Of a DNA stretch of 40,491 bases, positions 12,330 to 25,962 are shown piece after piece. Within the stretch, counting starts at the first letter, position 1; each line of letters begins with the position of its first letter. The notes beneath the pieces were generated by a model, which was not told where the DNA came from, ran no database searches, and saw only the letters and a program-made list of their open reading frames with translations. The stretch comes from Candidatus Eiseniibacteriota bacterium (GTDB lineage: Bacteria; Eisenbacteria; RBG-16-71-46; SZUA-252). Where the stretch lies: positions 1 to 40,491 of the forward strand of contig JANMQV010000215.1 in NCBI GenBank assembly GCA_031370645.1, given 5' to 3'. The translations under genes and the position numbers were made by a program.

Positions 12330-12776
12330 TTATTTCTTGGTCTTCTTGGCCTTCGCCTTCGCGGGCTTGGCCTGGCCGGACTTCGCCTTCGCGCGCGCCT
12401 TCGCCTTCTTGTCGCTCCTCTTCGCCACAGCCTTCTTCTTCGCGGCCGGCTTCTTCTTGGCGGCCTTCTTCTTGGCGGCCGGCTTCTTCTCCGCCTTCGG
12501 CTTGGCCTCGACCTTCGGACGGACGGGACGGAGCGCGTCCGGCGCATGCTTCGCCATCAGCACCGAAACCGACTCCGACGGCTTGGCGCCGTTCAGGATC
12601 CACTTGGCGAAATGGTCCGAGTCGATTTTGAAGGTCGCCGGATCCGTCAGCGGATCGTAGTAGCCGAGCTGTTCGATGAAGCGTCCGTCGCGCGGATAAC
12701 GCGAATCGGCGACGACGACGCGGTAGAACGGCCGGCCCTTGGACCCCGTTCGCTTGAATCGAATGACGACAGCCAT
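12330..12776 (-). CDS. rpsP: 30S ribosomal protein S16 with Lys/Ala-rich C-terminal extension
   Basis: [34 protein letters not shown]; about 60-aa PAAKKK-type tail. Confidence 0.97.
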
Positions 12777-12819: not shown

Positions 12820-14136
12820 CTAGCGGATTCCCATGGGGAGCTTGCCGCGCATTCCGCCGAGGCGCTTCATCATTTGTTGGGCCTGCTCGAACTGCCGGAG
12901 CAGGCGGTTCACGTCCTGCACCGTGGTGCCGCTTCCGCGCGCGATGCGCCGGCGGCGGCTTCCATCGATGATCTGCGGACGTTCGCGCTCGAGGCGGGTC
13001 ATCGAAAGGATGATCGCCTCGGTGCGCTTCATGTCCCGGTCGTCCACCTTCGCGCCTGCCGGCAGGCGGACTCCGGGGAGCATCTTCACGATCTCCTCGA
13101 GCGGCCCCAGCTTCTTCATCTCCTGGAGCTGCTGGAGGAAGTCGACCAATGTGAATCGATCCTTCCGGAGCTTCTTCTCGAGATCGACGGCCTTCGTGAA
13201 GTCGAGCCGCTCCTGCGCGCGCTCCACGAGCGTGAGGATGTCCCCCATGCCGAGGATGCGCGAGGCGAGCCGGTCGGCGTGAAAGGGTTCGAGCCCGTCC
13301 ACTTTTTCGCTCACGCCCATGAAGCGGATCGGAGCGCCGGTCACCGCCTTCAGCGAAAGCGCAGCGCCTCCTCGCGCGTCGCCGTCCATCTTCGTCAGCA
13401 CGAACCCGCTCACCGGAAGTCGCGTGGTGAACGCCTGCGCGATCTGCACCGCGTCCTGCCCCGTCATGGCGTCCAGAACGAGGTAGGTCTCCGACGGCTC
13501 GAGCACCTTGTGGACGCGAGCCACCTCGTCCATGAGGCCGTCGTCCACGTGGAGCCGTCCCGCCGTGTCGGCGATCAGGAGATCGAAGCCTTCCCGATCG
13601 GCCCGCGTTCGCGCCGCCTTCGCCAGCGCCACCGGGTCCTTCGCCTCACGATCGACGTGAATCGGAACGCCGACGCTCCGCGCCAAGACCTCCAACTGAT
13701 CGATGGCCGCGGGGCGCTGCAGGTCGAGCGCCGCGAGAAGAACGCGCTTTCCTCGCCCCGCCCAGTGCTTCGCGAGTTTCGCCGCCGTGGTTGTCTTCCC
13801 GGAGCCCTGGAGCCCCGCGAGGAGAAGCACGGCCGCGCGGTTCGACGGAAACTGGAGTCCCGCCGTCGCCGATCCGCCGAGAAGTTTGACCAACTCCTCG
13901 TGAACGATCTTGACGATCTGATTTCCGGGCGAAACACTCTGCAAGATCTCGGCGCCGACCGCGCGCGCTTCGACCGATTTCAGGAAATCGCGCGCGACGT
14001 CGAGATTCACGTCGGCTTCAAGGAGCACGCGGCGAATCTCGCGCAGCGACTCCTTCACGTCCTGTTCGGAGAGCCGACCGCGGCCCACAAGCTTTTGGAA
14101 GACGCCGTGGAGGCGCTCGGTTAGGCTCTCAAACAA
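12820..14136 (-). CDS. ffh: Signal recognition particle protein Ffh
   Basis: [49 protein letters not shown]. Confidence 0.97.
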
Positions 14137-14188
14137 GGCTTCGGACCCCCCGACAGGCGTCTTGGAACTCGGTCGACATAAACGCAGT

Positions 14189-14218
14189 AGGCTAGCATCG
14201 GAACGGCACTTACGGCAA
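14189..14218 (-). promoter_or_regulatory. Putative sigma70 promoter of ffh operon
   Basis: TTGCCG-18 bp-TAGCCT with TGn extension, about 50 nt upstream of ffh. Confidence 0.5.
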
Positions 14219-14308
14219 CCCTCAAGTGGGGGCCGCCGGGGCGTCGGTGGAGAATCTTTGGCCGGTCTAAAAAAAGTGAAGCCGGATGGCGTCGGTCGTA
14301 CATTTCCG

Positions 14309-14337
14309 TTGACATGAACGACAGGTGAGAATAATTT
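14309..14337 (+). promoter_or_regulatory. Putative sigma70 promoter
   Basis: TTGACA-17 bp-TAATTT in an AT-rich patch of a GC-rich genome. Confidence 0.65.
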
Positions 14338-14341
14338 TAAC

Positions 14342-14470
14342 AGTCGAGCGGAGTTCCCTGCCGCCTCGTGCCCAATCCGCGGCCAAGACCTAGTCCCACA
14401 AGCCGGTCATTTCTTGCGGGGTTTTGAGTTGCGTACCACGTGGATGCGCGGGGAACTTCCTCCTAATTTT
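14342..14470 (+). ncRNA. Candidate structured RNA (sRNA or 5' leader), family not recognised
   Basis: Starts just after the promoter; 12-bp closing stem GGAGUUCCCUGC (14350-14361) with GCGGGGAACUUC (14448-14459) using two G-U pairs; nested inner pairings CGUG/CACG, CCGC/GCGG, GACC/GGUC. Confidence 0.45.
14367..14381 (+). repeat. 15-bp direct repeat CGTGCCCAATCCGCG, copy 1
   Basis: Exact match to 18456-18470. Confidence 0.85.
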
Positions 14471-14487
14471 GTCCCCACCCCCACTCC

Positions 14488-14952
14488 TTGAGACCGGCTA
14501 GGAGCATCGACCCACTGAAACGCGTGCTTCTTTTGGCGTGCCTCGCGCTCGTCGGCTGCAGTTCGGACGCGATCCACGGACGCCAGGCGTTTTTCCCCGG
14601 CTCGAGACTCACGTCGTGGGCGGCGTGCGACAAGTTCTCCGGCATCAGCGACAACATCGAGATCTGCGCGAGCACCGGCCTCCTCCCGGGAGCGTCGGCG
14701 CAGACTTACAACATTTCCTTCTCGCTGCCGAACGATGCGCATGTTCGGATCGCGGTCTTCGACAGTCACGCCGCGCTCGTGAGGCTGCTGTTCGACGACG
14801 ACGAGGCGGCGACGCTCCCCGGATTCTTCCGCCAGCCCCCCATCGCGTGGGATTTCACCGACGCGAACGGCGTCCGGGTTTCGCCGGGCGCCTATCGTTT
14901 GTATTTCAAGTCGGGGTCGACTCAATCGACCAGCGACGTGGAGGTACCGTGA
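14488..14952 (+). CDS. Lipoprotein with FlgD-like Ig domain
   Basis: KR-hydrophobic-LVGC lipobox; FSLP..AHVRIAVFD....LVRLL ... WDFTDANG.RV.PGAY pattern. Exact start uncertain (14488-14524). Confidence 0.75.
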   Translation: MRPARSIDPLKRVLLLACLALVGCSSDAIHGRQAFFPGSRLTSWAACDKFSGISDNIEICASTGLLPGASAQTYNISFSLPNDAHVRIAVFDSHAALVRLLFDDDEAATLPGFFRQPPIAWDFTDANGVRVSPGAYRLYFKSGSTQSTSDVEVP

Positions 14953-15632
14953 CCTCCGCTCCGCTCGCTCGTCGCTTCCTCCTGCTCCTCGCGTGCCTCG
15001 CGGCGGGAATCGTCGTCGTCTCGCGCCCGCTCGAGGCACGCGCGGAGGAGGGGGCCACGGGTGAGACTCCGGGCTCGGCTCAGCCCACGGCGCCCTCCGA
15101 TTCCGCGGCGATCGCGGCGGCCATGGCCGCTTCCGACTCGGCCCTCGCCGAGGCTCGCGCGCCAGGCCGGGTGGCCCGCGCCAATGCCGTTTCCCGCTTC
15201 GAATTCGGCGCCGCCATGCCGGAGGGATATTTCGATTGGCTCGCGACGGCGGGCTACCGTCATCGCCTTCTCACCGACGCGCGCTTCGAACATTGGCTCG
15301 AGGTGGACGCGATGTACGGGAAGAAGCGGTATCTGAGCGAAGGCTCCGCGGGTGTGGCGTGGTTCTTCCGCCCGCTCGCCCTCTGGCACCCCGAGTGGCG
15401 GTTCCGCCCGGTCGTCGAGGCCGGAGTGGGCGGCACCATCGTGGTTCAGTTCGCCGATATCGAGGGATTCAACGATTGGTCGTCGCATGCCCGCGCGTAC
15501 GTGAAGTCGCACGCCGTGGCGGGATTCGAAACCGAATTAACGGGGCGCTGGGGGATCGCCGTTCGTGGCCGCTTCACGGTCCCGGCGAGCCGGCCGCTCG
15601 ACTACGCCCAGGTCGTTCTCTTCCTCAGATAG
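14949..15632 (+). CDS. Exported hypothetical protein, possible small outer-membrane beta-barrel
   Basis: GTGA-coupled start with GGAGGT SD; signal peptide ending A-R-A; Ala/Pro linker; aromatic-rich amphipathic strand pattern. Confidence 0.65.
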   Translation: MTSAPLARRFLLLLACLAAGIVVVSRPLEARAEEGATGETPGSAQPTAPSDSAAIAAAMAASDSALAEARAPGRVARANAVSRFEFGAAMPEGYFDWLATAGYRHRLLTDARFEHWLEVDAMYGKKRYLSEGSAGVAWFFRPLALWHPEWRFRPVVEAGVGGTIVVQFADIEGFNDWSSHARAYVKSHAVAGFETELTGRWGIAVRGRFTVPASRPLDYAQVVLFLR

Positions 15633-18403
15633 TCTCCGGTCGCCGAGTTCTTCTCCCGCGCTACTTCGGCGGGAGTTCCCGCGGCCACCAGCCTCCCGCC
15701 CGCAGCGCCGCCGTCCGGCCCCAGCTCCACCAGCCAGTCGCACGACGCTAGGAAGTCGAGGTTGTGCTCGACGGCGATCACCGTTCCGCCCCGTCGCGTC
15801 AGTTCGTGCAGCACGCGGAGGAGCACCGCGACGTCGCGCCGGTGAAGACCGACCGTCGGCTCGTCGAGAATGTAGAGCGTGTCGGGCGCGCTTCGCTCCG
15901 CGAGTTCGCGGGCCAGCTTCAGCCGCTGCGTCTCCCCTCCGCTCAGCGTGGTGAGCGGCTGGCCGAGCCGCAAGTAGCCGAGCCCGACCCGCTCCAAGAC
16001 CCAGAGCGGCTCCTGGATTTCGGGCTCACCGCCGAAGACGCGGATCGCCTCCTCGATCGTCTTCCCGAGAAGTTCGTCCATGGAGAGGCCGTGGACGCGA
16101 ACCTCGAGGACCTCGGGGCGGTAGCGCTTCCCGCCGCACGCCTCGCACGGAATCGAGAGGTCGGCCAGGAAGTACATCTCGACCTTCGTGACGCCGGCCC
16201 CCTCGCAGACGTCGCAACGCCCGCCGGCCACGTTGAAGGAGAACGTGCCGGGCGTGTACTTCCGTTCCCGGGCGAGCGGAGCGCGCGCCCACCGCTCCCG
16301 GATCCGGTCGAACGCTTTCACGAAGGTGGCGGGGTTCGACCGCTGCGTTCTTCCGACCGGGCTCTGATCGACGAGCGCGATTCGGGAGGCGCCCTCGAGG
16401 CCGGTCACCTCGTCGTGCGCGCCCGGCACCGGCGCCTCTTCCCCCGCCGCGCGGGCGGCTGCCCGATAGAGAACGTCCTCGACGAGCGTCGACTTCCCCG
16501 ATCCCGATACGCCGCAGACACCGGTCAACGCGCCGATCGGAAAGCGCGCCGTGACGTTTTTCAGATTGTGCTCACGGGCGCCGCGCACCTCGATCCATCC
16601 GGCCGCCCGTTTCGGATCCGGGAGACGGAAGCGCGAGTCTCGCGCCGGGAATTCGACCGACACGCGTCTCCCCGGCCATGTCTCGATCGGCCCTTCGTGG
16701 AGGAGTTCCCCCCCGCGCTCCCCGGCCCCGGGGCCGAGCTCGATGATCCATTCCGCCGCGTCGATCACGTCGGGGTCGTGCTCCACCACGAGGAGCGTGT
16801 TCCCCCGTTCGCGGAGGCGGAGCAGGACGCGGATCAACCGGTCGGTGTCGCGCGGATGGAGCCCGACCGTCGGCTCGTCGAGCACGTAGAGCGTGTGGCT
16901 CAGGCTTCCGCCGAGCGCGTTCGCCAGTTCGATCCGCTGCGCTTCCCCTCCGGAGAGCGACTTCGACTGTCGGTCGAGCGTCAGGTAGTCGAGGCCCGTC
17001 TCGCCGAGGTAGTCGAGCCGTCCGCGAAGTTCGGCGACGATCGGTGCCGCGACTTCGGTCCGGACAGGATCGAGGTCGAGCGCGACAACGAAGGCGCGAA
17101 GTTCCCCGACGGTCATTGCCGCAAGATCGGCGACGTTCTTCCCTCCCACGTAGACCTCCAGCGCCTCCGGCTTGAGCCGGATGCCGCGACAGGCGCCGCA
17201 GATCACCTGCTCCTGATAGCGCTTCACGAGGAATCGCGCGCTCAGTTTGTAGGCCTTCTCCTTCTGGCGCTCGAGGAAGGGGAATACGCCGCGGAACCCG
17301 GGCGCGCCATGGAGGAGGATTTCCTGATGCTCCGGCTTGAGCGCCTTGAAGGGGCGGTCGAGAGGAATGCCGTGCTTATCGGCGACGGCTTTCAGTTTCG
17401 GAAGGAAGTGCGCCCTCCAGGAGTTCGCCCATGGATCGAGAGCGCCGTTATTGACGCTCTTCTCCGGATGGGGAACGACTCGCTCGCGCGTGAACGTGAG
17501 GACGTTTCCGAAACCGCGGCACTCGGGGCAGGCGCCGTAAGGGCTGTTGAAGGAGAAGAGCTGGGGGCGCGGCTCCGGAAACGTCCGCCCGCACCCTTCG
17601 CAGACGCGACCGTCGGCGTAGGTCGCGCGTTCGCCCGACGCGCGTTCCACCGTGACGCGGCCGTCCCCTTCCCGCCACGCGTGCTCCAGCGCTTCGCGAA
17701 GCCGCATCCGCTGCTCGGGCGAGGGGCGGAGCCGATCGACGAGAATCTCGATCGGGGCGCGGAGTTTCGGCGGCGGCGGTTCGTCGAGGCGAAGCCAGCC
17801 GTCGGTGCCGCGAGCGCGAGCGCGGAGAAATCCACGCGAAAGGGCACGCGCCCAGAGCGCCGCCGGCGATTCCCCGGGCCGCGCGGCGAAGACGATCCAA
17901 ACGGAGACTTCCTCGCCGCCCGTCCGGAGCACCGCTTCCAGGACGGAATCGAGGCTGTGCCGCGGGACCGCGTGGCCGCACCGGCCGCAGCGCGTCTCGC
18001 CCACGCGCGCGAGGAGGAGGCGGAGGTAGTCGGCGAGCTCCGTCACCGTTCCGACCGTGGAGCGTCCCGTCTGCGCGGCCGCTCCCTGGCGAATGGCGAT
18101 CGCCGGGGCGAGCCCTTCGAGGAGGTCGTAGTCGGGGCGCGGCAAGCGATCGAGGAACTGCTTCGCGTAGGTGGAGACGCACTCCACGTAGCGCCGCTGT
18201 CCCTCGGCGTAGATCGTGTCGAAGGCGAGCGACGACTTCCCCGATCCGCTCACCCCGGTCACCACCGTCAGGGCGGCGCGCGGGAAGGAGACGTCGATAT
18301 TTCGGAGATTGTTCTGGCGGGCGCCCTGGACACGGACGCGCGGCTTTAGCGCGATGGCGGCCAGATCGGCGGAGGCGTCGGGAGGCGGAGAGCGGTCGGG
18401 CAC
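15602..18403 (-). CDS. uvrA: Excinuclease ABC subunit A (divergent, possibly second paralog)
   Basis: Two GVSGSGKS Walker A motifs, [13 protein letters not shown] twice, LDEPTVGLH twice, CxxC zinc modules. Confidence 0.93.
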
Positions 18404-18409
18404 GCGCCC

Positions 18410-18415
18410 ATCATA
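18410..18415 (-). promoter_or_regulatory. Putative -10 element for leaderless uvrA
   Basis: TATGAT followed by 6 nt and the GTG at 18403; no SD; no convincing -35. Confidence 0.45.
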
Positions 18416-18419
18416 ACGC

Positions 18420-18449
18420 GAGGCCGCCCGGCATGCACCGGGCGGCCTC
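18420..18449 (-). terminator. Perfect 12-bp GC hairpin downstream of the micropeptide ORF
   Basis: GAGGCCGCCCGG-N6-CCGGGCGGCCTC; U-tract weak, so may be a stabilising stem rather than an intrinsic terminator. Confidence 0.6.
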
Positions 18450-18455
18450 TGAGGA

Positions 18456-18470
18456 CGTGCCCAATCCGCG
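18456..18470 (+). repeat. 15-bp direct repeat CGTGCCCAATCCGCG, copy 2
   Basis: Exact match to 14367-14381; 5 nt past the micropeptide stop codon. Confidence 0.85.
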
Positions 18471-18475
18471 TTAAA

Positions 18476-18526
18476 CTACTTCTTCTTAGCAGCCTTCTTC
18501 TTAGCAGCCTTCTTCTTCGCCGGCAT
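18476..18526 (-). CDS. 16-aa lysine-rich micropeptide [16 protein letters not shown]
   Basis: Below ORF-track cutoff. GGGGAGGTG SD 6 nt before ATG; ATG CCG GCG AAG AAG AAG (GCT GCT AAG AAG AAG)x2 TAG; followed by hairpin. Confidence 0.7.
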   Translation of the reverse strand: MPAKKKAAKKKAAKKK

Positions 18527-18562
18527 GTACGTCACCTCCCCTCGCGTTGATTTGTTCGCCGT

Positions 18563-18946
18563 TCAGCCCGCGGCATTGCCCCCGGGCCCAATCAGCCCCA
18601 CCACCTCATCCACCATCACCGTGAGATCGAACGGCTTTCTGAGGTATCGATCGACCTTCAGTCGCTTCGCTTCCGTCTTCACGTCGGGCGTCTCGTAGGC
18701 CGTCATGAGAATCAGTTTCGACGGCACCGCCTGCTCGCGCAGGCGCCTGATCATTCCGATTCCGCTCTCCCCCGGGAGGCGGTTGTCGAGGACGATCAGA
18801 TCGAACGAGGGACTCGCGAACGCTCGCCGATCCGCATCTTCCGCGGATCCGGCCGTCGCGATCCGATAACCCGACTCACGAAGGACGTTGGAGAGTGTGC
18901 GAACGAGCAACTGCTCGTCGTCCACGATGAGGACCGACTTCGACAA
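18563..18946 (-). CDS. Single-domain response regulator (receiver only)
   Basis: VLIVDDE, DLIVLDNRLPGESG, ILMTAY, YLRKPF; TTG start with GGAGGAGG SD. Confidence 0.9.
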   Translation of the reverse strand: MSKSVLIVDDEQLLVRTLSNVLRESGYRIATAGSAEDADRRAFASPSFDLIVLDNRLPGESGIGMIRRLREQAVPSKLILMTAYETPDVKTEAKRLKVDRYLRKPFDLTVMVDEVVGLIGPGGNAAG

Positions 18947-18992
18947 TCCACACCTCCTCCATGCGTCGCCGTGATCATCGCTAGATGTAGAA

Positions 18993-19009
18993 AGCAGGAA
19001 CGGTGCCAA
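18993..19009 (-). promoter_or_regulatory. sigma54 (-24/-12) promoter
   Basis: TTGGCACCGTTCCTGCT: GG and GC separated by exactly 10 nt; about 46 nt upstream of the receiver gene. Confidence 0.8.
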
Positions 19010-19133
19010 CTCGCGCGTCTCTCGTCACAAGCGAGCACGCGGATCGCGCATCGTCTCGTAACGATGCGAAGTTAGGACGCATCGTTCATGCGGCTCCTTC
19101 ATGCGGTCGCGCGAACGCGCCGCGCGCGCGAAG

Positions 19134-19228
19134 TGTCAGGAGATTGGACAGCGCGGATCGATCGCGCGCGTTTCTCGCAGGTGAATGCGCGATGTGTGAA
19201 GAAACGCGACATGTCGAGAAAGACAACA
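19134..19228. promoter_or_regulatory. Putative enhancer (UAS) boxes for a sigma54 activator
   Basis: Three TGT-N11-ACA 17-mers: 19134-19150 TGTCAGGAGATTGGACA, 19195-19211 TGTGAAGAAACGCGACA, 19212-19228 TGTCGAGAAAGACAACA. Confidence 0.55.
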
Positions 19229-19277
19229 GCCGATTCGGACGACTTCGATACGCGGCGATTGGTTACAATCGCTCCTC

Positions 19278-21230
19278 ATGATCGGAACGCGACTCGCTCA
19301 CTACCTGCTTCAAGAAGAGATTGGCGCCGGCGGAATGGGCGTCGTCTATCGCGCGCGCGACGAGCGACTCGAGCGCGACGTCGCGGTGAAGGTGCTCCCG
19401 CCCGGCATCCTCGACGAAACCGCGCGGGCGCGGTTCCGCCGCGAAGCGATGGCACTCTCGAGACTGAATCATCCCCACATCGGCATGATCCACGACTTTG
19501 GGAGCGATCAAGGCACCGACTTCCTCGTGATGGAGCTCGTGCGCGGTCGCACGCTCCGCGAGCGGCTTCGCGAAGGACCGCTTTCGCTGGAGGAAGCGGT
19601 GGAGACGGCGATCGCCGTGGCCGAAGCGCTCGAGGAGGCACACGAGCAGGGCGTGATTCATCGCGACCTGAAGCCGGAGAACATCCTCCTCACGACGAAG
19701 GGCTGGGTAAAGGTGCTCGACTTCGGGCTCGCGTCGCTACGGCCGGCGTCGGGCGCCACCGTGACCACGCAAACTCTGACGGCGGCGCATCTCCTGACCG
19801 GCACGCTCCCCTACATGGCGCCCGAGCAACTCCTCGGAAAGCCGGCGGAGGCGCGGACCGACCTCTACGCGCTCGGCGTCCTGATGTACGAGTTGGCGAC
19901 GGGGACACGGCCGTTCGAGGCGGACGTGCAGGCGGCGCTCATCGGCGAGATCCTCCACAAGACGGCGGCCGCGCCGTCGTCGCGAAGGACGGGGATCCCG
20001 ATTTGGTTCGACGGCATCGTGGCGCGATGTCTCGAGAAGGAAACGGTCCTTAGGTTCGAAGACGCCGCGTCCTTGAAGCAGGCGTTGAAGGATGGGGTGC
20101 GCGGGGGGCCGGGTCCTTCCGCGCCGGTTTGGACTGCCTCCGCGGAAGCGGGCGCCGGCGCGGCCGGGTCGGGCCCGCCTTCCTCCTCCGCGAGTGTCGG
20201 CTTCGCCACGCCACCGGCCGTGCCGGCGACGCCCATCTCCGGCTTCTCCGCCGGCGCGGCGAGCCAGCAGGTGAATCCGGAGGCGTACGACGCGGTCATC
20301 CGGGGACGCCAGATCATCGGCCGCCGAACCGATGAGAGCATGCGGCGCGGCATCGAGTACATCCGCCGCGCTATCGAGATCGATCCGCTCTACCCGCCGG
20401 CGTACGCCGCGTTGGCGACCGCGTACGACCTGATGGGATTCTTCGGCATGGCGGCGCCGGCCGACTGCTTCCCTCGCGCACGGGTCGCCGCCTCGCGCGC
20501 CATCGATCTCGACTCGAAGTGGGCGCCCGCCTACTCGGCGCTGGCGTACGTCGCCCTCTACTATGAGTGGGACCTCCGGAAGTCGGAGGAGCTCTTCCGG
20601 AAGTGCATCGAGCTCGACCCGCAATACCCCATCGGGCCGCTCTGGTACGCCAACCTCCTCCTCTTCGAGCGCCGATTCGAGGAAGCGGCCCAGACCATCA
20701 ACCGCGCGCAGGCGCTCGACCCGCTCTCCTCCATCGTCACGATGAGCCACGGCTGGACCGCCATGTTTCAAGGGAAGTACGAGTGGGCCCTGCGGGAGTA
20801 CTCGAAGGCGACGGACTTTGATCCGGACTTCCACGTCGCCCACTGGATGGCCTCGTGGTGCCTCACGGCGCTCGGGCGGCACGATGAGGCGGTGGCCTCC
20901 GTCACGAGGGCGATCGAGACCTCGAAGGGACTCCTCATCTGCTACCCCACCTTGGCGCGAGCGCACGCGCTGGCCGGAAGAAAGGACGAGGCGCGCCGGG
21001 TGTTGGCGGAGCTGGAGGCGAAATCGCCCGCCCGGTACGTGGAGCCGCTGGAAGTGGCTCTGGGGTACGAGGCGTTGGGCGAGCGTGATATCGCGTTTAC
21101 GTGGTTCGACCGCGCGGTGGAAGCGAGATCGCGCTGGCTGGTGGCGCTGGGGGTGGATCCGCGGTTCGATTCGCTTCGTGAGGATCCCAGGTTCGGCGCG
21201 TTGAAGAAGAAGGTGGGCGTCTTCGAGTAG
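19278..21230 (+). CDS. Hanks-type Ser/Thr protein kinase with C-terminal TPR repeats
   Basis: GAGGMGVVY, VAVK, HRDLKPEN, DFGLA, GTLPYMAPE; TPR-like C-terminus ending DPRFDSLREDPRF; TACAAT 8 nt before ATG. Confidence 0.94.
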   Translation: MIGTRLAHYLLQEEIGAGGMGVVYRARDERLERDVAVKVLPPGILDETARARFRREAMALSRLNHPHIGMIHDFGSDQGTDFLVMELVRGRTLRERLREGPLSLEEAVETAIAVAEALEEAHEQGVIHRDLKPENILLTTKGWVKVLDFGLASLRPASGATVTTQTLTAAHLLTGTLPYMAPEQLLGKPAEARTDLYALGVLMYELATGTRPFEADVQAALIGEILHKTAAAPSSRRTGIPIWFDGIVARCLEKETVLRFEDAASLKQALKDGVRGGPGPSAPVWTASAEAGAGAAGSGPPSSSASVGFATPPAVPATPISGFSAGAASQQVNPEAYDAVIRGRQIIGRRTDESMRRGIEYIRRAIEIDPLYPPAYAALATAYDLMGFFGMAAPADCFPRARVAASRAIDLDSKWAPAYSALAYVALYYEWDLRKSEELFRKCIELDPQYPIGPLWYANLLLFERRFEEAAQTINRAQALDPLSSIVTMSHGWTAMFQGKYEWALREYSKATDFDPDFHVAHWMASWCLTALGRHDEAVASVTRAIETSKGLLICYPTLARAHALAGRKDEARRVLAELEAKSPARYVEPLEVALGYEALGERDIAFTWFDRAVEARSRWLVALGVDPRFDSLREDPRFGALKKKVGVFE

Positions 21231-21233
21231 CCG

Positions 21234-22640
21234 TTACCGTCCGACTTCGAGCGTCCCTCGAATGGCGGCGATCCGCTTCAACCGCTCGATGAGACTCTGC
21301 CGCGAAATCCCGAGCACCTTGGCCGCCTGCGAGCGATTCCCGCTCGTCGCTTCGAGCACCTTCAAGATGTGCTCCTGCTCGATCTCCGACAGCGTGGGGA
21401 GATTGATGTCGTTCTCCCCGCGCGCCACCATCGCGTCCCGGAGCGCGCGTGGCACCGACTCGTACTGGGCGATCATCTCGGCCGGCAGGTAGTCCTCCCG
21501 CAGCCTCTCGTCGTCCTCCAGCAGCACGACCCGCTCCAGCAAATTCCGCAACTCCCGGACGTTCCCCGGCCAGCGGTAGACGCGGACGATTGCCTCCACG
21601 TCGTCCGTCATCCCGACGAAGCGCTTCCGGAACTTCTCGCTGTAGTAGTGGAGGAAGTGCCGCATGAGGAGCAGAACGTCGTCGCCCCGCTCGCGGAGCG
21701 GCGGCATGACGACCGAGACGACCTTGAGCCGGTAATAGAGATCGTGCCGGAAGCGCCCCTCGCGGACCGCCGTTTCGAGGTCGCGGTTCGTCGCGGCGAC
21801 GATCCGAAGTTCGACCGAGAGGTCGGCCGCGCCGCCGACGCGCTTGAAGGTCCGATCCTCGATGAAGCGGAGGAGTTTCGCCTGGGTGTTGACCGGCAGA
21901 TCGCCGACTTCATCGAGGAAGAGTGTTCCCTGATCGGCGAGCTCCACGAGGCCCCGCTTCGGCTCCCGCGCGTCGGTGAAGGCGCCGCGCTCGTGTCCGA
22001 AAAGCTCGTTCTCCAGCAACTGTTCCTGGAACGTGGAGCAGTTGAGCGCGAGGAACGGGGCGTCCCGCCGCGCACTCTCGAAGTGGAGCGCCCGGGCGAC
22101 GAGTTCCTTGCCGGTGCCGCTCTCCCCCTCGATCAGCACGGTCGTCGCCTCGCTTTGCGCGACCTTGTAGGTGATCTCCCAGGCGCGGCGGATCGCGGGC
22201 GACTCACCGACGATCTTCGTCTTCAAGAACGCCTCGAGTTCCGTGCGCCGGAAGGCATCGAGCTGCGTCTCGCGAATGAGCCCCGCCTTCAGCCGCTCCA
22301 TCGCGAGGAGCATCTCGTGCATCTCGTAGGGCTTCTTGAGGAAGTCGGTCGCCCCTTGGCGCATCGCCTCGACCGCCGTGGGGAGGTCTCCAAAAGCCGT
22401 GATCACCACGACCTTCAGGTCGGGGGCAAGCGTCTTCAGGCGCGGGAGGAGTTCGAGGCCGCTCCCATCGGGGAAGCGAAGGTCGAGGATCAGCGCGTGA
22501 GGAGGATCGCGGCGGACCGAGTCGAGCACTTCGGCCGCGGTGCCGACCGCATCCACGTCGTACCCCTCGGCGCTCAGGACCTTCACGAGCGACTTCCGAA
22601 TCAGTTCTTCGTCGTCGGCGATCCGGACGCGGAGCTTCAT
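21234..22640 (-). CDS. NtrC-family sigma54-dependent response regulator (REC-AAA+-HTH)
   Basis: GESGTGKE, ELFGHERGAFTDA, LFLDEVG, WPGNVREL, C-terminal Fis-type HTH. Confidence 0.96.
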   Translation of the reverse strand: MKLRVRIADDEELIRKSLVKVLSAEGYDVDAVGTAAEVLDSVRRDPPHALILDLRFPDGSGLELLPRLKTLAPDLKVVVITAFGDLPTAVEAMRQGATDFLKKPYEMHEMLLAMERLKAGLIRETQLDAFRRTELEAFLKTKIVGESPAIRRAWEITYKVAQSEATTVLIEGESGTGKELVARALHFESARRDAPFLALNCSTFQEQLLENELFGHERGAFTDAREPKRGLVELADQGTLFLDEVGDLPVNTQAKLLRFIEDRTFKRVGGAADLSVELRIVAATNRDLETAVREGRFRHDLYYRLKVVSVVMPPLRERGDDVLLLMRHFLHYYSEKFRKRFVGMTDDVEAIVRVYRWPGNVRELRNLLERVVLLEDDERLREDYLPAEMIAQYESVPRALRDAMVARGENDINLPTLSEIEQEHILKVLEATSGNRSQAAKVLGISRQSLIERLKRIAAIRGTLEVGR

Positions 22641-22643
22641 GCG

Positions 22644-23747
22644 TTACTTCTCCCGCTCGTCGCGCGCTTCTTCCGACTCCGGAGGAGCGAGGAGCGCGGG
22701 GAGGCTGAACTTGAACGCCGCCCCCTGCGTGAGATTCCGCGCGGTCAGATTTCCGCCGTGCTCGCGCGCAATCTGCTGCGAGATGGAGAGCCCGAGCCCC
22801 GTTCCCATGGAGCGGGTCGTGAAGAAGGGATCGAAGATCTTCTCCTTCACGTCCTCCGGAATCCCCGGTCCCGAGTCCGCCACGATCACGTCGACGTAGG
22901 CCTTCGTGGAGCGCGTTCGCCGGAGACCCGTGCTGATCCGGAGCGTTCCCCCTTGCGGCATCGCCTGGATGGCGTTGATAACCAGGTTCAAGACCACTTG
23001 GTGCGCCATGTCGGGGTCGACCGCCACGGGTGGGAGCCCCTCGTCGAAGTCGGGTTCCACCTCCACGCCCGAGTCCTTCAGCCGGCGGCCGAGATTGTCG
23101 AGCGCCTTCGCGACCACCTCGTGCATGTCGGTCGGGGTCGGCTTCGCGGCCTGGGGGCGCGCGAACAAAAGAAGGTCGGTGATGATCTGCTCGATCCGGT
23201 CGAGTTCCTTGAGAACATCTTGAAGATCGTCGCGGCGAGAGTCGCCGGCCCGGAGTTTCGAGGCGACGAACTGGACGGTGGTCCGAACACCGGTGAGTGG
23301 ATTTCGAATCTCGTGCGCGACGCGCGCCGAGAGTTCGCCGAGCGAGATGAGGCGCTCGGTATTTCGGAAGATTTCCTCTTCGGAGTCGGCGTCGACCAAG
23401 TCCTCGATGCGGACGAGGAGAGCGCCGTCGTCGCCGAGCGAGGAGGCGGAGTAGCGCATCAAGACCTCGCGGTCCCCCACCTTGCCGCGCACCTCTCGCG
23501 TGGAGCGTCCCGGTTCTCCCTTCGAGCCGCGCTCCGGCAGATACCAGCGCTCCGTCTCCGGCTCGAAGATCTCGCCGAGGGGCTTCCCCACGACATCATC
23601 GGCGGCCACGCCCCACCCTTTGGCGAGCGTCTCGTTGACCGCGACGATGCGCCGGTCCTCGTCGATCACGAGGAGCCCCGTGTCGAGCGCGTCGAGCACG
23701 CGAACCAGGGAGTCGCGAGCGACGTCAGGGGCTTCTGCGCGCGTCAT
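22644..23747 (-). CDS. Cytoplasmic PAS-domain histidine kinase (NtrB-like)
   Basis: N-terminal PAS-like segment, AHEIRNPL, NLVINAIQA, DSGPGI, FDPFFTT, GTGLGL; no TM segment; GGAGGT SD. Confidence 0.94.
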   Translation of the reverse strand: MTRAEAPDVARDSLVRVLDALDTGLLVIDEDRRIVAVNETLAKGWGVAADDVVGKPLGEIFEPETERWYLPERGSKGEPGRSTREVRGKVGDREVLMRYSASSLGDDGALLVRIEDLVDADSEEEIFRNTERLISLGELSARVAHEIRNPLTGVRTTVQFVASKLRAGDSRRDDLQDVLKELDRIEQIITDLLLFARPQAAKPTPTDMHEVVAKALDNLGRRLKDSGVEVEPDFDEGLPPVAVDPDMAHQVVLNLVINAIQAMPQGGTLRISTGLRRTRSTKAYVDVIVADSGPGIPEDVKEKIFDPFFTTRSMGTGLGLSISQQIAREHGGNLTARNLTQGAAFKFSLPALLAPPESEEARDEREK

Positions 23748-23891
23748 CGGTACCTCCAGACAGTCGGAATTCGGCTGACCTCGTGAAGTTGCCTCCCGGG
23801 GGCGAGCGCGTCAACGGCAAATTGGCTTGGCGTAGCGGTTTCCCGCTTTCGAGCGGGCCCCGCGAGGGGTTCCGCCGAAAACCCGCGCCTC

Positions 23892-23921
23892 TTGCGCACG
23901 GGGGGCGCCCCTTGGTAATCT
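23892..23921 (+). promoter_or_regulatory. Putative sigma70 promoter of SurA/PpiD-like gene
   Basis: TTGCGC-18 bp-TAATCT with TGn extension. Confidence 0.45.
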
Positions 23922-24004
23922 TGACGGCTGACTGGCTTTCGCGCGGCGCCTGCGAGGGCGCCGTTCCTATCTATCTCTTCGAACGATACCGAGGTGTATT
24001 CGTC

Positions 24005-25831
24005 ATGATGCAGGGCCTTCGCGACAACATGAAGATCATCATCTGGATCACGGCGGTCGTGTTCCTGGTGGGCTTCGGCATTCTCGAGCTCGGCGGCGTG
24101 ATGGACTTCCGGAACGCCGGCAAGTCCTCCGCGGGTCCGGCCGGCGTGATCGCCGAGATCAACGGGCAGCCGGTTCGCTACGATTTCTTCCAGCAGACCT
24201 ACAATCAGATGATCGCCGAACTTCGCCAGACGCGGGAGATGCGCGAGGGCGGAGACGCCTACGTGCGCGAGCAGGCCTGGCAGCAGATCGTGCGGAACAC
24301 ACTCCTCGAGCAAGAGGCGAAGCGCCGCGGCATCAAGTCGAGCCCCGAGGAGATCAAGAGCGCCATCCGCTACTCGCCGCCCCAGTTCATCGTGCAGTCG
24401 CAGGCGTTCAACACGAACGGCCAGTTCGACTACCGGAAGTACCTGGCCGAGCTGGACAATCCCAACTCGCAGGTTCCGTGGGCGCAGGTGGAGGCTCTCG
24501 TCGCCTCGCAGTTGCCGCTCCAGAAACTGCAGGAGGAAGTCATCGCCGGCGCGAAGGTGTCGGACGGCGACGTCCGCGACCGGTTCCTCCTCCAGAACGA
24601 GCGGCTCACGCTCAACTACGTTCGCTTCGCGCCCGACTCCTTCCCGGTCGACACCTCGAAGGTAGGCGGCGCCGACATCGAGTCCTACTACAAGGCGCAC
24701 CCCGACGAGTTCTCCGGCCCCGAGGAGGCGAAGGTCCAGGTGGCGCTCGTGCCGCGTTTGCCCGACGAGAGCGACTTCTCCGCGGGCCGCGAGCGGCTCC
24801 GTCCGATCCTCGACGAATTGAAGGCTTCGCCCGACTCCTTCGAGGCGCGCGCCAGGATCTACTCGGAAATTTCCTCGAACGTGAAGGGCGGCGCGATCAT
24901 GGCGCCGACCCCGTTCGACGATATGCGTCCGATCTTCCGCACGGGGCTCGCCAACGTCGCTCCCGGCCACCTCTCGGAGATTCTCCAGGAAGAGCGCTCG
25001 CTCCACATCTTCCGTGTCGATTCGCGCCAGATGGATCCGGTGCGGAAGAAGGAGATGATCCTCTACCACGAACTCGCGATCCGGATTCAGCCGGGTCCAA
25101 ACGCCGTTCGCGCCGCTCTCGACAAGGCGAAGGCGTTCGTGAAGGACGCGGAGAAGGGCCAGCTTGCTTCCGCGGCCACGAAGTACGGCTATCGCACCCT
25201 CGAGTCGGGCTACTTCGCGTCGGGCAAGAGCCAGAACGAAGTCTTCCAGCGCTTCCCCGACCTCGAGACCTGGGTCTTCACCGGGAGCATGCACTCCGTC
25301 TCGCGGCCGATTCCGTCGGAGACGGGCTGGTACGTCTATCAGATTCTCGACCGCCGGAAGGCGGGGGTGCGGCCGTTGGAGCAAGTGTCGGCCGACGTGA
25401 AGAAGGCGGTCGTTCGCTCGCTCAAGATGCAGCGCGCCAGTGCCGCCGCCGAGCAGGCGCGCACCGCGATTCTCTCCGGCGCCAAGGAAGACGAAGTCGC
25501 CAAGCGCTTCAACGGAACGACAGGGAACGCCGACGGCATCACGCGAAACGGCTTCATCGGAGTGCTCGGCCAGGATGCCAAGATGGTGGGGCGGCTCATG
25601 TCCCTGCCGCCCGGTTCGTGGGCGCCGGTGCTCACCGGGGTTCCGGGCGCGGTCCTCTTCAAGATCACCGGGCACCAGCAGCCGAACGAAGCGGAGTTCC
25701 AGAAGTCGGCCACCCAGTTGCGCGAGAACCTCATGCAGGAGCGTCGCCAGGTGCTCTTCGTCGAGTGGATGGACCAGCTCCGCCGGGCGGCGAAGGTGAA
25801 GGATTACCGGGAGAACTACTTCGACAGTTGA
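24005..25831 (+). CDS. Membrane-anchored SurA-N/PpiD-like periplasmic chaperone
   Basis: MMQGLRDNMKIIIWI..TM helix, IAEINGQPV, NGQFD..KY, degenerate parvulin-like region, KVKDYR end; GAGGTG SD at true start 24005. Confidence 0.85.
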   Translation: MMQGLRDNMKIIIWITAVVFLVGFGILELGGVMDFRNAGKSSAGPAGVIAEINGQPVRYDFFQQTYNQMIAELRQTREMREGGDAYVREQAWQQIVRNTLLEQEAKRRGIKSSPEEIKSAIRYSPPQFIVQSQAFNTNGQFDYRKYLAELDNPNSQVPWAQVEALVASQLPLQKLQEEVIAGAKVSDGDVRDRFLLQNERLTLNYVRFAPDSFPVDTSKVGGADIESYYKAHPDEFSGPEEAKVQVALVPRLPDESDFSAGRERLRPILDELKASPDSFEARARIYSEISSNVKGGAIMAPTPFDDMRPIFRTGLANVAPGHLSEILQEERSLHIFRVDSRQMDPVRKKEMILYHELAIRIQPGPNAVRAALDKAKAFVKDAEKGQLASAATKYGYRTLESGYFASGKSQNEVFQRFPDLETWVFTGSMHSVSRPIPSETGWYVYQILDRRKAGVRPLEQVSADVKKAVVRSLKMQRASAAAEQARTAILSGAKEDEVAKRFNGTTGNADGITRNGFIGVLGQDAKMVGRLMSLPPGSWAPVLTGVPGAVLFKITGHQQPNEAEFQKSATQLRENLMQERRQVLFVEWMDQLRRAAKVKDYRENYFDS

Positions 25832-25858
25832 TCGGTGCCGGGCTCGCACGGTAATCGA

Positions 25859-25895
25859 AACGAGGCGCCGCGGAGAAAGTCCACGGCGCCTCGTT
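25859..25895. terminator. Hairpin between convergent genes
   Basis: AACGAGGCGCCG...CGGCGCCTCGTT 12-bp stem followed by T-rich bases on +. Confidence 0.7.
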
Positions 25896-25962
25896 CTTGT
25901 TCCGTGTTCCACCCCGATCGGCGGTACACGTTTTCATCCATCCCGCACGTCGTCCTACCGAG

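Follow-up and report, generated by a model that had tools for sequence, protein, structure and literature searches.

We found that the locus is likely to be a conserved sigma-54 two-component output module, in which a histidine kinase and an NtrC-family activator are predicted to act through enhancer dyads and a -24/-12 promoter on a lone receiver and a micro-ORF. A preliminary description had proposed a self-contained sigma-54 circuit, consisting of a PAS kinase and a GAFTDA-containing activator on the same strand, a -24/-12 promoter, three TGT-N11-ACA boxes about 125-220 bp upstream of it, and a transcript encoding only a lone receiver and a 16-aa peptide. All of these elements were found in the window (the whole 40,491-bp stretch of DNA that was analysed), and they are syntenic in the related loci that cover them. 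The transcript predicted from the -24/-12 promoter has four parts: the receiver gene, a 15-16-codon Lys-rich ORF, a 20-nt block free of variation, and a GC-rich hairpin. In the mechanism we propose, a cytoplasmic signal would act on the PAS domain, and the kinase would then phosphorylate D53 of the activator; the activator would assemble on the dyads and remodel the sigma-54 holoenzyme at the promoter. No rpoN gene was found in the 40,491-bp window.

The window originates from an uncultured soil-type bacterium. It was compared with three related "Candidatus Eisenbacteria" loci, L001 (20 kb), L002 (5 kb), and L034 (7 kb), one of which is truncated; comparisons of the 3′ end used the window, L001, and L002, the latter two being the relatives that reach it. 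The order kinase, activator, dyads, promoter, receiver was unchanged wherever the contigs extend, with the activator gene seen in all three relatives and the kinase gene in L001 and L034. The synteny from kinase to peptide anticipated in the preliminary description was thereby retraced in the loci covering each part. Receiver and activator matches had 19 identical longest-contig sizes in common (~0.6 expected by chance), and ten of these 19 contigs were no longer than 7.4 kb.

A soluble kinase and a GAFTDA activator

The kinase gene (22644-23747, minus strand) opens a two-gene operon completed by the activator gene. Its 367-aa product carries Pfam PAS, HisKA, and HATPase_c domains with the H-box (H145) and the N, G1, and G2 boxes, and is 77% identical in L001 and 96% in L034. 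No hydrophobic 19-mer exceeded a KD value of 1.13; the protein is thus devoid of a TM helix and soluble. The activator (21234-22640, minus strand) is a 468-aa NtrC-family enhancer-binding response regulator with Pfam REC, Sigma54_activat, AAA_lid, and HTH_8 domains; REC D53, Walker A and B, and GAFTDA at residues 219-224 are all present. The kinase scored below every NCBIfam equivalog cut-off (best, AtoS, 265 vs 646; NtrB, 118 vs 240), as did the activator for NtrC (408.7 vs 558.6) and AtoC (401.7 vs 714). The nearest solved structures to the activator are Aquifex NtrC4 and NtrC1. A 722-aa minus-strand ORF upstream of the kinase was rejected as a gene, being the shadow of a plus-strand SurA/PpiD-like gene.

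GAFTDA is retained in the activators of L001 and L034. The loop is a natural variant in 120/120 proteins among the matches listed (119 homologues and the window's own), reading GAFTDA in 101 and GAYTDA in 19. A passage in PMC4641369 counts GAFTDA among the GAFTGA-loop variants expected to retain activation, and one in PMC10714721 reports RpoN as not bound to a GAFTDA protein, which counts against GAFTDA activators working with sigma-54. The window, L001, and L002 have the HTH recognition helix ISRQSLIERLKR in common; its counterpart in L034 is ISRQSLIERIKR.

The promoter and its upstream dyads

We searched the whole window for TGGCAC-N5-YTGCW, allowing up to one mismatch. The sole hit, TGGCACCGTTCCTGCT (18993-19008, minus strand), was an exact match where the sigma-54 type promoter had been placed; since 0.87 chance matches are expected and one match is not rare, the weight of this prediction comes from conservation. 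GG-N10-GC is kept in L034, L001 (TTGGCCCGCTTCCTGC), and L002 (TTGGCCCGCTTCATGC), and the promoter, its spacing, and the TTG start of the receiver are conserved in 4/4 loci, window included. Equally invariant in the four loci is a 5′-UTR motif, GCGATGA (18975-18981, minus strand), between the promoter and the receiver SD. Traces of promoter, SD, and start can be read at the protein level in the mis-called N-terminal extensions of 14 receiver homologues. Ten mis-called extensions spell LAPFLL, LARFLL, LACFLQ, WHHSC, or WPASC, all compatible with TGGC..TGC, and GCGATGA is echoed as 'SDD' or 'GDD'.

The predicted enhancer (UAS; 19134-19228), identified by motif match and conservation, consists of three 17-bp TGT-N11-ACA dyads located 127-221 bp upstream of the -24 GG. 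Box 3 occupies 19134-19150, and boxes 2 (19195-19211) and 1 (19212-19228) abut. These are the only three matches in 40,491 bp, all inside 95 bp, where ~1.37 are expected window-wide; the background was 99 sites in 1.15 Mb over 77 unrelated loci. All the TGT-N11-ACA sites of L001, L002, and L034 (2, 2, and 3, respectively) lie at the same place. The expectation that promoter and boxes would be conserved in relatives held for the promoter and for boxes 2 and 3, which are kept in 3/3 relatives as TGTCG..CGACA and TGTCCAATC..TGACA; it failed for box 1, of which L001 and L002 have the left half only, the right half being lost. The spacing from box 3 to -24 is 135, 135, 133, and 132 bp in the four loci.

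In domain architecture the pair resembles NtrB/NtrC and AtoS/AtoC, which likewise combine a PAS-HisKA-HATPase kinase with a REC-AAA+-HTH_8 activator and have in common with this locus dyads >100 bp upstream of a GG-N10-GC promoter. The locus differs from both in its GAFTDA, not GAFTGA, loop and in its sole local target, a lone receiver and micro-ORF rather than metabolic genes; unlike AtoS, its kinase is soluble. In CbrAB-CrcZ of Pseudomonas and LuxO-Qrr of Vibrio, the EBP gene adjoins its own sigma-54-dependent RNA target. Here, too, the activator gene is, in the ancestral order, the immediate neighbor of a short sigma-54 unit containing A-rich or regulatory RNA, but the transcript, which has no Rfam match, clearly codes for a 127-aa protein and very probably for a micro-protein as well.

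The lone receiver

The receiver gene (18563-18946, minus strand) has a TTG start behind GGAGGAGG and encodes a 127-aa single-domain response regulator with Pfam Response_reg only. Residues D9, D10, D54, T82, Y101, and K104 are present, and 59 columns are invariant over 20 aligned sequences. Once induced, this receiver, with all phospho-acceptor residues and an alpha1 resembling that of the activator, may act on the kinase; alternatively, it might relay the signal to another partner. That it competes for, or inhibits, the same PAS kinase as negative feedback is a tentative proposal, to which we give somewhat less than an even chance. In similarity to the activator REC, its alpha1 plus beta5-alpha5 region ranks 6 of 95 compared with 67 of 95 for the whole domain, in a control set that is biased because it was chosen for similarity to the lone receiver; this is a weak hint of a phosphate-sink role.

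CheY2 and LovR are phosphate-sink receivers. In Rhodobacter sphaeroides, the Osp-CckA system is described as a single-domain response regulator in negative feedback on a kinase (PMC9430884). The design predicted for the present receiver is the same as in all three: a single-domain response regulator whose transcription is turned on by the response regulator of its pathway and which could act back on the kinase. Induction here would differ in running through sigma-54 and an EBP, and the receiver keeps all its phospho-acceptor residues.

A contrary reading, doubtful but with a real share of the probability, is that the receiver is a forward output, an adaptor that binds an effector when phosphorylated rather than a phosphate sink or feedback inhibitor. 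Hardly any variation is seen among 20 homologues in its alpha4-beta5-alpha5 face (ILMTAYETP.VK...KRLKV..Y..KPFDL), as is typical of a protein-protein output surface, and the family is 67-94% identical in 120 clusters among the matches listed. However, the module contains no conserved candidate partner gene, as the genes downstream differ between loci; the alpha1 specificity region is nearer to the activator REC than whole-domain similarity predicts; and Osp-CckA, as described, provides a precedent for a single-domain response regulator, induced by a two-component system, that inhibits its own kinase.

An invariant 3′ block and a complementary RNA

A new feature of the transcript is a 20-nt block, GCGGATTGGGCACGTCCTCA (18450-18469, minus strand), located after the peptide stop. 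The window, L001, and L002 (3/3 loci) agree at 100% over the block, while its flanks vary. The conserved unit ends in a 30-nt hairpin with a 13-bp GC-rich stem (18420-18449, minus strand) and covarying pairs (AU/GC and GC/AU). This hairpin was called as a terminator in L001 but not in the window, where it has no U-tract, or in L002, whose stem contains a single mismatch. The CACGUCCUC stretch of the block is able to pair with the peptide SD, with a probability of ~0.99 in the window, 0-0.05 in L001, and 0.14-0.18 in L002.

The preliminary description had also named a 14.3-kb RNA as a post-transcriptional input. This link gained sequence support, because the start of the block proved perfectly complementary to a conserved, rod-like structured RNA at that position, RNA-B (14346-14462, plus strand), which precedes a small lipoprotein ORF. 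Between the window and L001, RNA-B is conserved far above the neighboring lipoprotein (58% aa). It folds with 41 pairs, two of them compensatory. For the locus as a whole, with three related loci, one truncated, the covariation evidence is thin. RNA-B had no Rfam match, and a simple scan called no sigma-70-like promoter for it. Nucleotides 18456-18470 (the start of the block together with C18470) are complementary to 14367-14381 (plus strand), and the complementarity between the start of the block and RNA-B is perfect over 14-15 nt in the 2/2 genomes covering it (window and L001). Duplex energies were -35.4 and -32.8 kcal/mol, values equaled in 1 and 4 of 1000 shuffles, and the dimer MFE of the block-containing transcript with RNA-B includes the intermolecular helix. 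Neither this helix nor the SD:anti-SD stem has compensatory support, because both are invariant.

Whether the block pairs with this RNA encoded 4 kb away we regard as close to an even call, on the strength of the complementarity. If it does, RNA-B might gate translation of the peptide or the fate of the mRNA; alternatively, the 3′ end might be a UTR-derived sRNA acting on RNA-B and the lipoprotein leader. GlnZ is reported as a 3′-UTR-derived sRNA of the NtrC-dependent glnA mRNA (bioRxiv 10.1101/2022.04.01.486790, PMC9731577). As reported there, it resembles the present case in arising at the 3′ end of an mRNA dependent on sigma-54 and an NtrC-family activator, and in a conserved single-stranded stretch, placed immediately ahead of the terminator hairpin, with complementarity to a second transcript. 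The present case differs in that the partner, too, is a conserved RNA with extensive structure, and either RNA could therefore regulate the other; moreover, the phylum and the sequences are unrelated.

The 13-15-nt shared sequence might instead be no RNA-RNA site, which we consider a less probable but serious reading: the copies would then be recognized by one DNA- or RNA-binding protein, or the match of two independently constrained elements would be accidental. Both copies run in the same sense on the minus strand and therefore form a direct repeat as DNA. Each copy lies within an already conserved block, so invariance in two genomes is no proof of co-evolution, and a third copy with one mismatch occurs inside a coding gene at 32175-32187. 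On the other side, three 13-mers with up to one mismatch, two of them exact, were seen where 0.09 are expected per window. At 14.3 kb it is the plus strand that is structured (folding z -3.04 vs -0.25 for the minus strand), and therefore the two RNAs are complementary. The complement is centered on a 7-nt internal loop, CCCAAUC, with its flanks, and this loop is unpaired with a probability of 0.74-1.0. The block itself is an isolated identity island that otherwise lacks an explanation.

The lysine-rich micro-ORF

Between receiver and block lies a 16-codon micro-ORF (18476-18526, minus strand) preceded by the SD GGGAGGTGA (18532-18540). Its predicted product has 9 Lys in 16 residues and is composed only of Lys, Ala, Pro, and Gly. 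It is kept as a 15-aa ORF with a GTG start in L001 and a 16-aa ORF in L002, that is, in 3/3 loci reaching the 3′ end, window included; a search of the other 77 loci turned up no Lys-rich micro-ORF with an SD in front. Translation into a polycationic peptide is, from this pattern, probable.

The competing reading, which we hold to be unlikely, is that the element is untranslated, its three AAGAAGAAG runs serving as an A-R-N RNA motif that binds an RNA chaperone or other protein, or that it belongs to a long 3′ UTR or sRNA. CrcZ, which lies downstream of cbrB, has a protein-binding motif of this A-R-N type, and the element resembles CbrB-crcZ in standing at the 3′ end of a sigma-54 transcript that adjoins the activator gene. 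The AAGAAGAAG runs are invariant because every one of the 27 Lys codons across the three loci is AAG, and the peptide has no detectable partner or family. Nevertheless, a GC content of 66% leads one to expect AAG for Lys, and conservation extends to the strong SD at the correct spacing, the start (ATG or GTG), and the stop. The sole indel is 3 nt, one codon, and in-frame; six of the nine variable sites are at third positions, synonymous changes are seen, and the spacers keep a GCN GCN period. The SD also appears widely kept, since 7/120 receiver homologues among the matches listed read through to tails ending EGR* or RGEVN*, which fit the micro-ORF SD sequence.

Returning to the translated reading, bS22, bL37, eL41, and Thx are very small Arg/Lys-rich ribosomal proteins. 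The predicted peptide is like them in size class (15-35 residues) and extreme positive charge; sequence similarity is not assessable at 16 residues. It differs in its restriction to Lys, Ala, Pro, and Gly and in its location outside a ribosomal operon, and its expression would be sigma-54-conditional.

Neighboring genes outside the module

Downstream, uvrA (15602-18403, minus strand; Pfam) is a neighbor and no conserved part of the module. The preliminary placement of uvrA directly downstream is correct for the window only, as unrelated genes intervene in L001 (FG-GAP and bestrophin-like) and L002 (GT87) and put it 3.4 and 1.3 kb past the hairpin, respectively. The accompanying suggestion of a dormancy or nucleoid-compaction switch gained no support, as nothing links the module to dormancy. 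Such a switch, with the polycationic peptide condensing DNA and functionally tied to uvrA, could draw on the 9 Lys of the peptide and on the start of uvrA 16 nt past a hairpin without a U-tract in the window, but is very improbable given the unrelated genes that separate uvrA from the module in both relatives and a 16-residue peptide that has no DNA-binding fold, for which DNA is no likelier a target than ribosomes, RNA, polyphosphate, or membranes.

In the window, a gene for a Ser/Thr protein kinase with TPR repeats (19278-21230, plus strand; Pfam) separates the activator gene from the dyads. This gene is shared with L034 but missing from L001 and L002, whose dyads directly follow the end of the activator gene; by this comparison it is a lineage-specific insertion and no conserved part of the module. 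The dyads lie 50-144 bp upstream of its start in the window, yet it is highly unlikely that they belong to this divergent gene or to another regulator, with the activator controlling something else, as L001 and L002 share the dyads and promoter but lack this gene and the spacing between dyads and promoter is conserved. The ancestral order thus places the dyads and the -24/-12 promoter immediately downstream of the kinase-activator operon.

A sensor kinase and an NtrC-family activator form a two-gene operon

The module occupies a chromosomal setting of 66% GC among housekeeping genes (among others ffh-rpsP-rimM-trmD, uvrA, and genes for pantothenate and folate). The minus strand carries a 367-aa PAS-HisKA-HATPase_c kinase (22644-23747), followed after 3 nt by a 468-aa REC-Sigma54_activat-AAA_lid-HTH_8 activator (21234-22640), both assigned by Pfam. 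The kinase is a HisKA-type sensor histidine kinase, combining the Pfam HisKA and HATPase_c domains with a full set of H, N, G1 and G2 boxes (H-box HEIRNP at 145, NLVINA at 254, DSGPG at 291 and GTGLG at 315), and is judged soluble because it has no hydrophobic segment. The activator matched PF00158 at 1.8e-65 and PF02954 at 1.4e-13; its Sigma54_activat AAA+ domain, with Walker A (GESGTGKE) and Walker B (LFLDE) motifs, and its Fis-type HTH place it among the NtrC-family enhancer-binding proteins (EBPs). The nearest solved structures were Aquifex NtrC4 and NtrC1. An identity as NtrC or AtoC was rejected, as its scores fell under the NCBIfam equivalog cut-offs (408.7 vs 558.6 for TIGR01818 and 401.7 vs 714 for NF008469), and orthology of the pair to NtrB/NtrC or AtoS/AtoC was discarded with every score under the curated cut-off.

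A 722-aa minus-strand frame above the kinase (23744-25912) was considered as a third operon gene and dropped: Pfam gives no match to it, its composition is antisense-like, and the true gene opposite it is a divergent SurA/PpiD-like gene (SurA_N/rotamase, 23783-25831, plus strand). The frame is a shadow, and the kinase and activator therefore constitute a two-gene operon. Even so, the shadow frame still yields tblastn "homology" in relatives, an annotation trap in high-GC DNA.

The preliminary description had placed this pair at the head of a sigma-54 circuit, and each of its parts was recovered: a promoter at 18993-19008, three dyads, the kinase, an activator with a GAFTDA loop, a receiver and a 16-codon open reading frame (ORF). 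No rpoN was found among the genes and Pfam domains of the 40 kb window. Sigma-54 two-component systems are textbook material; to our knowledge, 'Candidatus Eisenbacteria' has no cultured member, and regulation there is almost unknown. The part of the literature naming this group that we consulted consists of ecological surveys, and a prior description of the module or the peptide was not found in the literature covered.

The predicted enhancer and promoter are conserved across related loci

The 40.5 kb window has three TGT-N11-ACA sites, clustered within 95 bp at 19134-19228. These candidate activator sites lie 127-221 bp upstream of the promoter, inside the usual EBP range of about 80-250 bp. 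The promoter itself, TGGCACCGTTCCTGCT at 18993-19008 (minus strand), has its GG and GC doublets separated by 10 nt, within TGGCAC-N5-TTGCW, and is the single match in the window to TGGCAC-N5-YTGCW with at most one mismatch. Chance alone would give about one match of this kind, and the weight of the promoter therefore rests on conservation.

A scan of genome contigs for the receiver gave three orthologous loci among the 80 listed, here called L001, L002 and L034, all from related Candidatus Eisenbacteria; L034 is truncated, and the footprint and micro-ORF counts rest on these loci. In the divergent spacer of the window and all three relatives, the footprints comprise dyads 2 and 3 (dyad 3 being nearest the promoter), GG-N10-GC, a GCGATGA in the 5′-UTR, and a Shine-Dalgarno (SD) sequence with a TTG start, so the boxes and promoter that the preliminary description had proposed are largely kept. 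Spacing from dyad 3 to the -24 element is 135, 135, 133 and 132 bp in the four loci, and every TGT-N11-ACA of L001 (20 kb), L002 and L034 falls in the same enhancer. Gene-caller errors offered a further view of this region: 14 of the 120 receiver homologues listed carry N-terminal extensions, all 14 ending in ...RCGL, the conceptual translation of the SD and TTG, and the ten that reach the promoter contain LAPFLL, LAPFVL, LARFLL, LACFLQ, WHHSC or WPASC, each compatible with TGGC...TGC. These strings fit the nucleotide motifs of promoter, SD and TTG, with which they are compatible rather than being proof of them.

Gene order was conserved as well. The dyads of L001 and L002 come straight after the end of the activator gene. 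In the window a Ser/Thr kinase gene with TPR repeats (19278-21230, plus strand; Pfam) stands between the two; of the four loci compared, only the window and L034 have it, and it is therefore an insertion into an ancestral kinase-activator-enhancer-promoter-receiver order. The insertion puts the dyads 50-144 bp upstream of the Ser/Thr kinase start codon, from where the activator might act on that gene as well. Beyond the fetched loci, 19 "longest contig" sizes were common to the receiver and activator match lists against about 0.6 expected, ten of these shared contigs measuring at most 7.4 kb, a pattern suggesting that receiver-activator linkage extends further than the three loci. Together, synteny and footprints support the reading as a sigma-54 circuit well. 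The module is compact enough for rebuilding in a heterologous host.

The activator departs from its family at one position. Its loop at residues 219-224 is GAFTDA, as against the GAFTGA sigma-54 contact loop of the family. GAFTDA is retained in L001 and L034, and all 120 homologues listed have either GAFTDA (101) or GAYTDA (19). Passages of PMC4641369 place GAFTDA and GAYTDA among the variants expected to retain activation and assign sigma-54 regulons to two Desulfovibrio EBPs with loops of this type, while passages of PMC10714721 describe the effect of the G-to-D change as unknown and report that RpoN was not detected with a GAFTDA protein. As a cleanly defined activator-enhancer-promoter set, the module bears on whether the GAFTDA loop works with sigma-54.

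The predicted sigma-54 transcript encodes a lone receiver

The first gene behind the promoter encodes a 127-aa receiver (18563-18946, minus strand) with a TTG start behind GGAGGAGG. It is a single-domain (CheY-like) response regulator: PF00072 spans residues 5-114 as the sole domain, and the pocket residues D9, D10, D54, T82, Y101 and K104 are all there and invariant in 20 homologues. Conservation extends over the protein, with 59 alignment columns invariant across 20 sequences and 120 clusters listed at 67-94% identity, the few named ones being mostly 'Candidatus Eisenbacteria'.

Binding of receivers to the DHp domain of histidine kinases is textbook material and would not set this receiver apart from others. 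The lone receiver was compared with the receiver domain of the activator. Among 95 receivers, a biased control set, it ranked 8 by alpha1, 6 by alpha1 plus beta5-alpha5 and 67 by the whole domain; the alpha1 likeness is a weak hint that the two share a kinase. A phosphate-sink role for the lone receiver is a tentative proposal, to which we give somewhat less than even weight. For a lone receiver acting back on its kinase there is a precedent in Osp-CckA, which PMC9430884 presents as a pathway-induced single-domain regulator inhibiting its kinase. The invariant alpha4-beta5-alpha5 face would fit a further downstream partner equally well.

A lysine-rich micro-ORF follows the receiver

Downstream of the receiver lies a 16-codon ORF behind GGGAGGTGA (18476-18526, minus strand), which recurs in all three loci that reach this position. 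It starts with ATG and encodes 16 aa in the window and L002, and starts with GTG and encodes 15 aa in L001; SD, start and stop are conserved, and the sole indel is one codon (3 nt). Six of the nine variable sites fall at third positions (binomial p ~0.04, three sequences). SD, start, stop, frame and synonymous bias together give it the profile of a conserved small ORF, as judged from three sequences only, and a 1.2 Mb scan of 77 unrelated loci revealed no other SD-preceded Lys-rich micro-ORF. In addition, seven receiver homologues without a stop codon have tails ending in EGR* (6) or RGEVN* (1), that is, the peptide SD region read as protein. We consider it probable that the micro-ORF is translated. 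As far as we know, poly-lysine ORFs of 15-16 residues are a class of gene product never called by annotation pipelines.

A conserved fusion of receiver and peptide was dismissed: in the window the two share a reading frame (18476-18565, minus strand) with no stop after the receiver TGA, so that read-through would add a Lys-rich tail, but by eye L001 has another frame and a TAA, and L002 a TAG. A leader-peptide attenuator was also rejected. The gene after the hairpin that ends the unit is uvrA in the window, an FG-GAP/T9SS-tail gene in L001 and a GT87 glycosyltransferase gene in L002; the micro-ORF is therefore not their leader peptide and uvrA is a mere neighbor, which leaves the link to uvrA drawn in the preliminary description unsupported. 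Its suggestion of a dormancy or nucleoid-compaction switch likewise found no support.

Lys-rich compositions also appeared elsewhere. The rpsP product (S16) has a long Lys/Ala-rich C-terminal tail (12330-12428, minus strand, and L001 19901-19969, plus strand) of a composition like that of the micro-peptide. Two Desulfobacterales loci, L059 (5629-5700, minus strand) and L029 (476-541, minus strand), have in common a short ORF, MTYKFIE..., with a poly-Lys end, at a position unrelated to their receiver genes.

An invariant 3′ block abuts the terminal hairpin

The 20 nt from the peptide stop to the hairpin, GCGGATTGGGCACGTCCTCA (18450-18469, minus strand), do not differ among the window, L001 and L002. 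In the RNAalifold model, CACGUCCUC forms a stem with the peptide SD, at a pairing probability of 0.99 in the window, 0-0.05 in L001 and 0.14-0.18 in L002. Because the pairing is weak in the relatives, SD:anti-SD sequestration alone fails to explain the invariance of the block, and we retain it as a partial hypothesis only.

The 13-bp GC hairpin (18420-18449, minus strand) has a U-tract in L001 and L002 and none in the window, where it was not called a terminator; simple scans called no sigma-70 promoter at 18300-19400. In the window only, the first uvrA start, an in-frame GTG at 18403 (minus strand), lies 16 nt after the hairpin. The gap is too short to hold a promoter of its own for uvrA and the U-tract is missing, so that some uvrA transcription in this genome may come from read-through of the sigma-54 unit.

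The 3′ block has a complement in a predicted structured RNA beside ffh

A second copy of the first 13 nt of the block lies at 14368-14380 in the window, and L001 has one at 17923-17935; both are beyond uvrA and beside ffh. This second copy sits within some 120 nt over which window and L001 agree much more closely than they do in the adjoining lipoprotein (58% at the amino acid level). The stretch corresponds to a predicted rod-like structured RNA between ffh and a small lipoprotein operon (window 14346-14462, plus strand; L001 ~17840-17960, minus strand). The plus-strand fold has 41 predicted pairs, two compensatory and eight G.U, with a z of -3.04 (2 of 200 shuffles as good) against -0.25 for the minus strand (74 of 200). 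Upstream stands a conserved TTGACA with a -10-like element, TAATTT or TAAATT; a simple scan rejects the pair, calling no sigma-70 promoter at 14100-14600. These features favor the plus strand as the one that is transcribed and folded.

A rod-like RNA transcribed from that strand would therefore contain a stretch complementary to the 3′ block, extending over 15 bp (window) or 14 bp (L001). This stretch is centered on a 7-nt internal loop (unpaired P 0.74-1.0), and the duplex energies of -35.4 (window) and -32.8 kcal/mol (L001) were equaled in 1 and 4 of 1000 shuffles, respectively. The helix is part of the minimum free energy structure of the dimer, which gains 6.4 and 11.2 kcal/mol over two monomers. 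No covariation appears in the helix because both partners are invariant. With a conserved block beside a hairpin and a conserved complement, the 3′ end has the predicted make-up of a UTR-derived or trans-pairing RNA. Four nucleotides of the anti-SD are shared with the helix, an overlap that would allow the rod-like RNA to free the peptide SD. Of the 14.3-kb RNA that the preliminary description had cast as a post-transcriptional input, the complement stands in window and L001, and the pairing itself is conjectural, a possibility that we place close to, and just short of, an even chance. Alternatively, the transcript 3′ end may act on the rod-like RNA and lipoprotein leader by analogy with GlnZ, which reportedly acts from the 3′ end of the NtrC-dependent glnA mRNA.

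The rod-like RNA may be a discrete sRNA or a 5′ leader, and a U-run follows its closing stem in the window, not in L001. Rfam returned no match at the gathering threshold in the window, none at E ≤ 1 in 13900-19400 and only noise (E 9.6) in L001 17300-18200; SRP or 6S RNA, considered for an RNA beside ffh, was dropped for want of an Rfam match, and no tRNA or tmRNA genes were found.

These elements could be assembled into a three-part post-transcriptional device, as far as we know an undescribed one, a rather unlikely reading on present estimates. A sigma-54-induced mRNA would carry the lone receiver and the polycationic 16-residue peptide, the anti-SD 3′ block would gate peptide translation, and an independently transcribed rod-like RNA would pair with the block and relieve or set the gate; in a variant, the transcript 3′ end would be a UTR-derived sRNA on the rod-like RNA and lipoprotein operon. 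If true, the device would define a class of structured RNA and a family of micro-proteins, both new, in an uncultured phylum. A specific RNA-RNA pair would link the sigma-54 transcript to an unclassified structured RNA beside ffh and, if real, provide an example of 3′-UTR-based regulation outside Proteobacteria and Firmicutes. Within the module, it is the micro-ORF and the RNA pair that merit further study.

Two conserved signal-peptide ORFs, neither with a Pfam match, follow the rod-like RNA (14488-15632, plus strand) and converge on uvrA: a lipoprotein with LALVGC, 58% identical in L001, and a 227-aa secreted protein, 48% identical. A one-mismatch copy of the 13-mer (GGGGATTGGGCAC) lies at 32175-32187 (minus strand), on the same strand inside an aminotransferase gene; with it, the window holds three copies against 0.09 expected, and it may offer the rod-like RNA another place to pair or be a product of chance.
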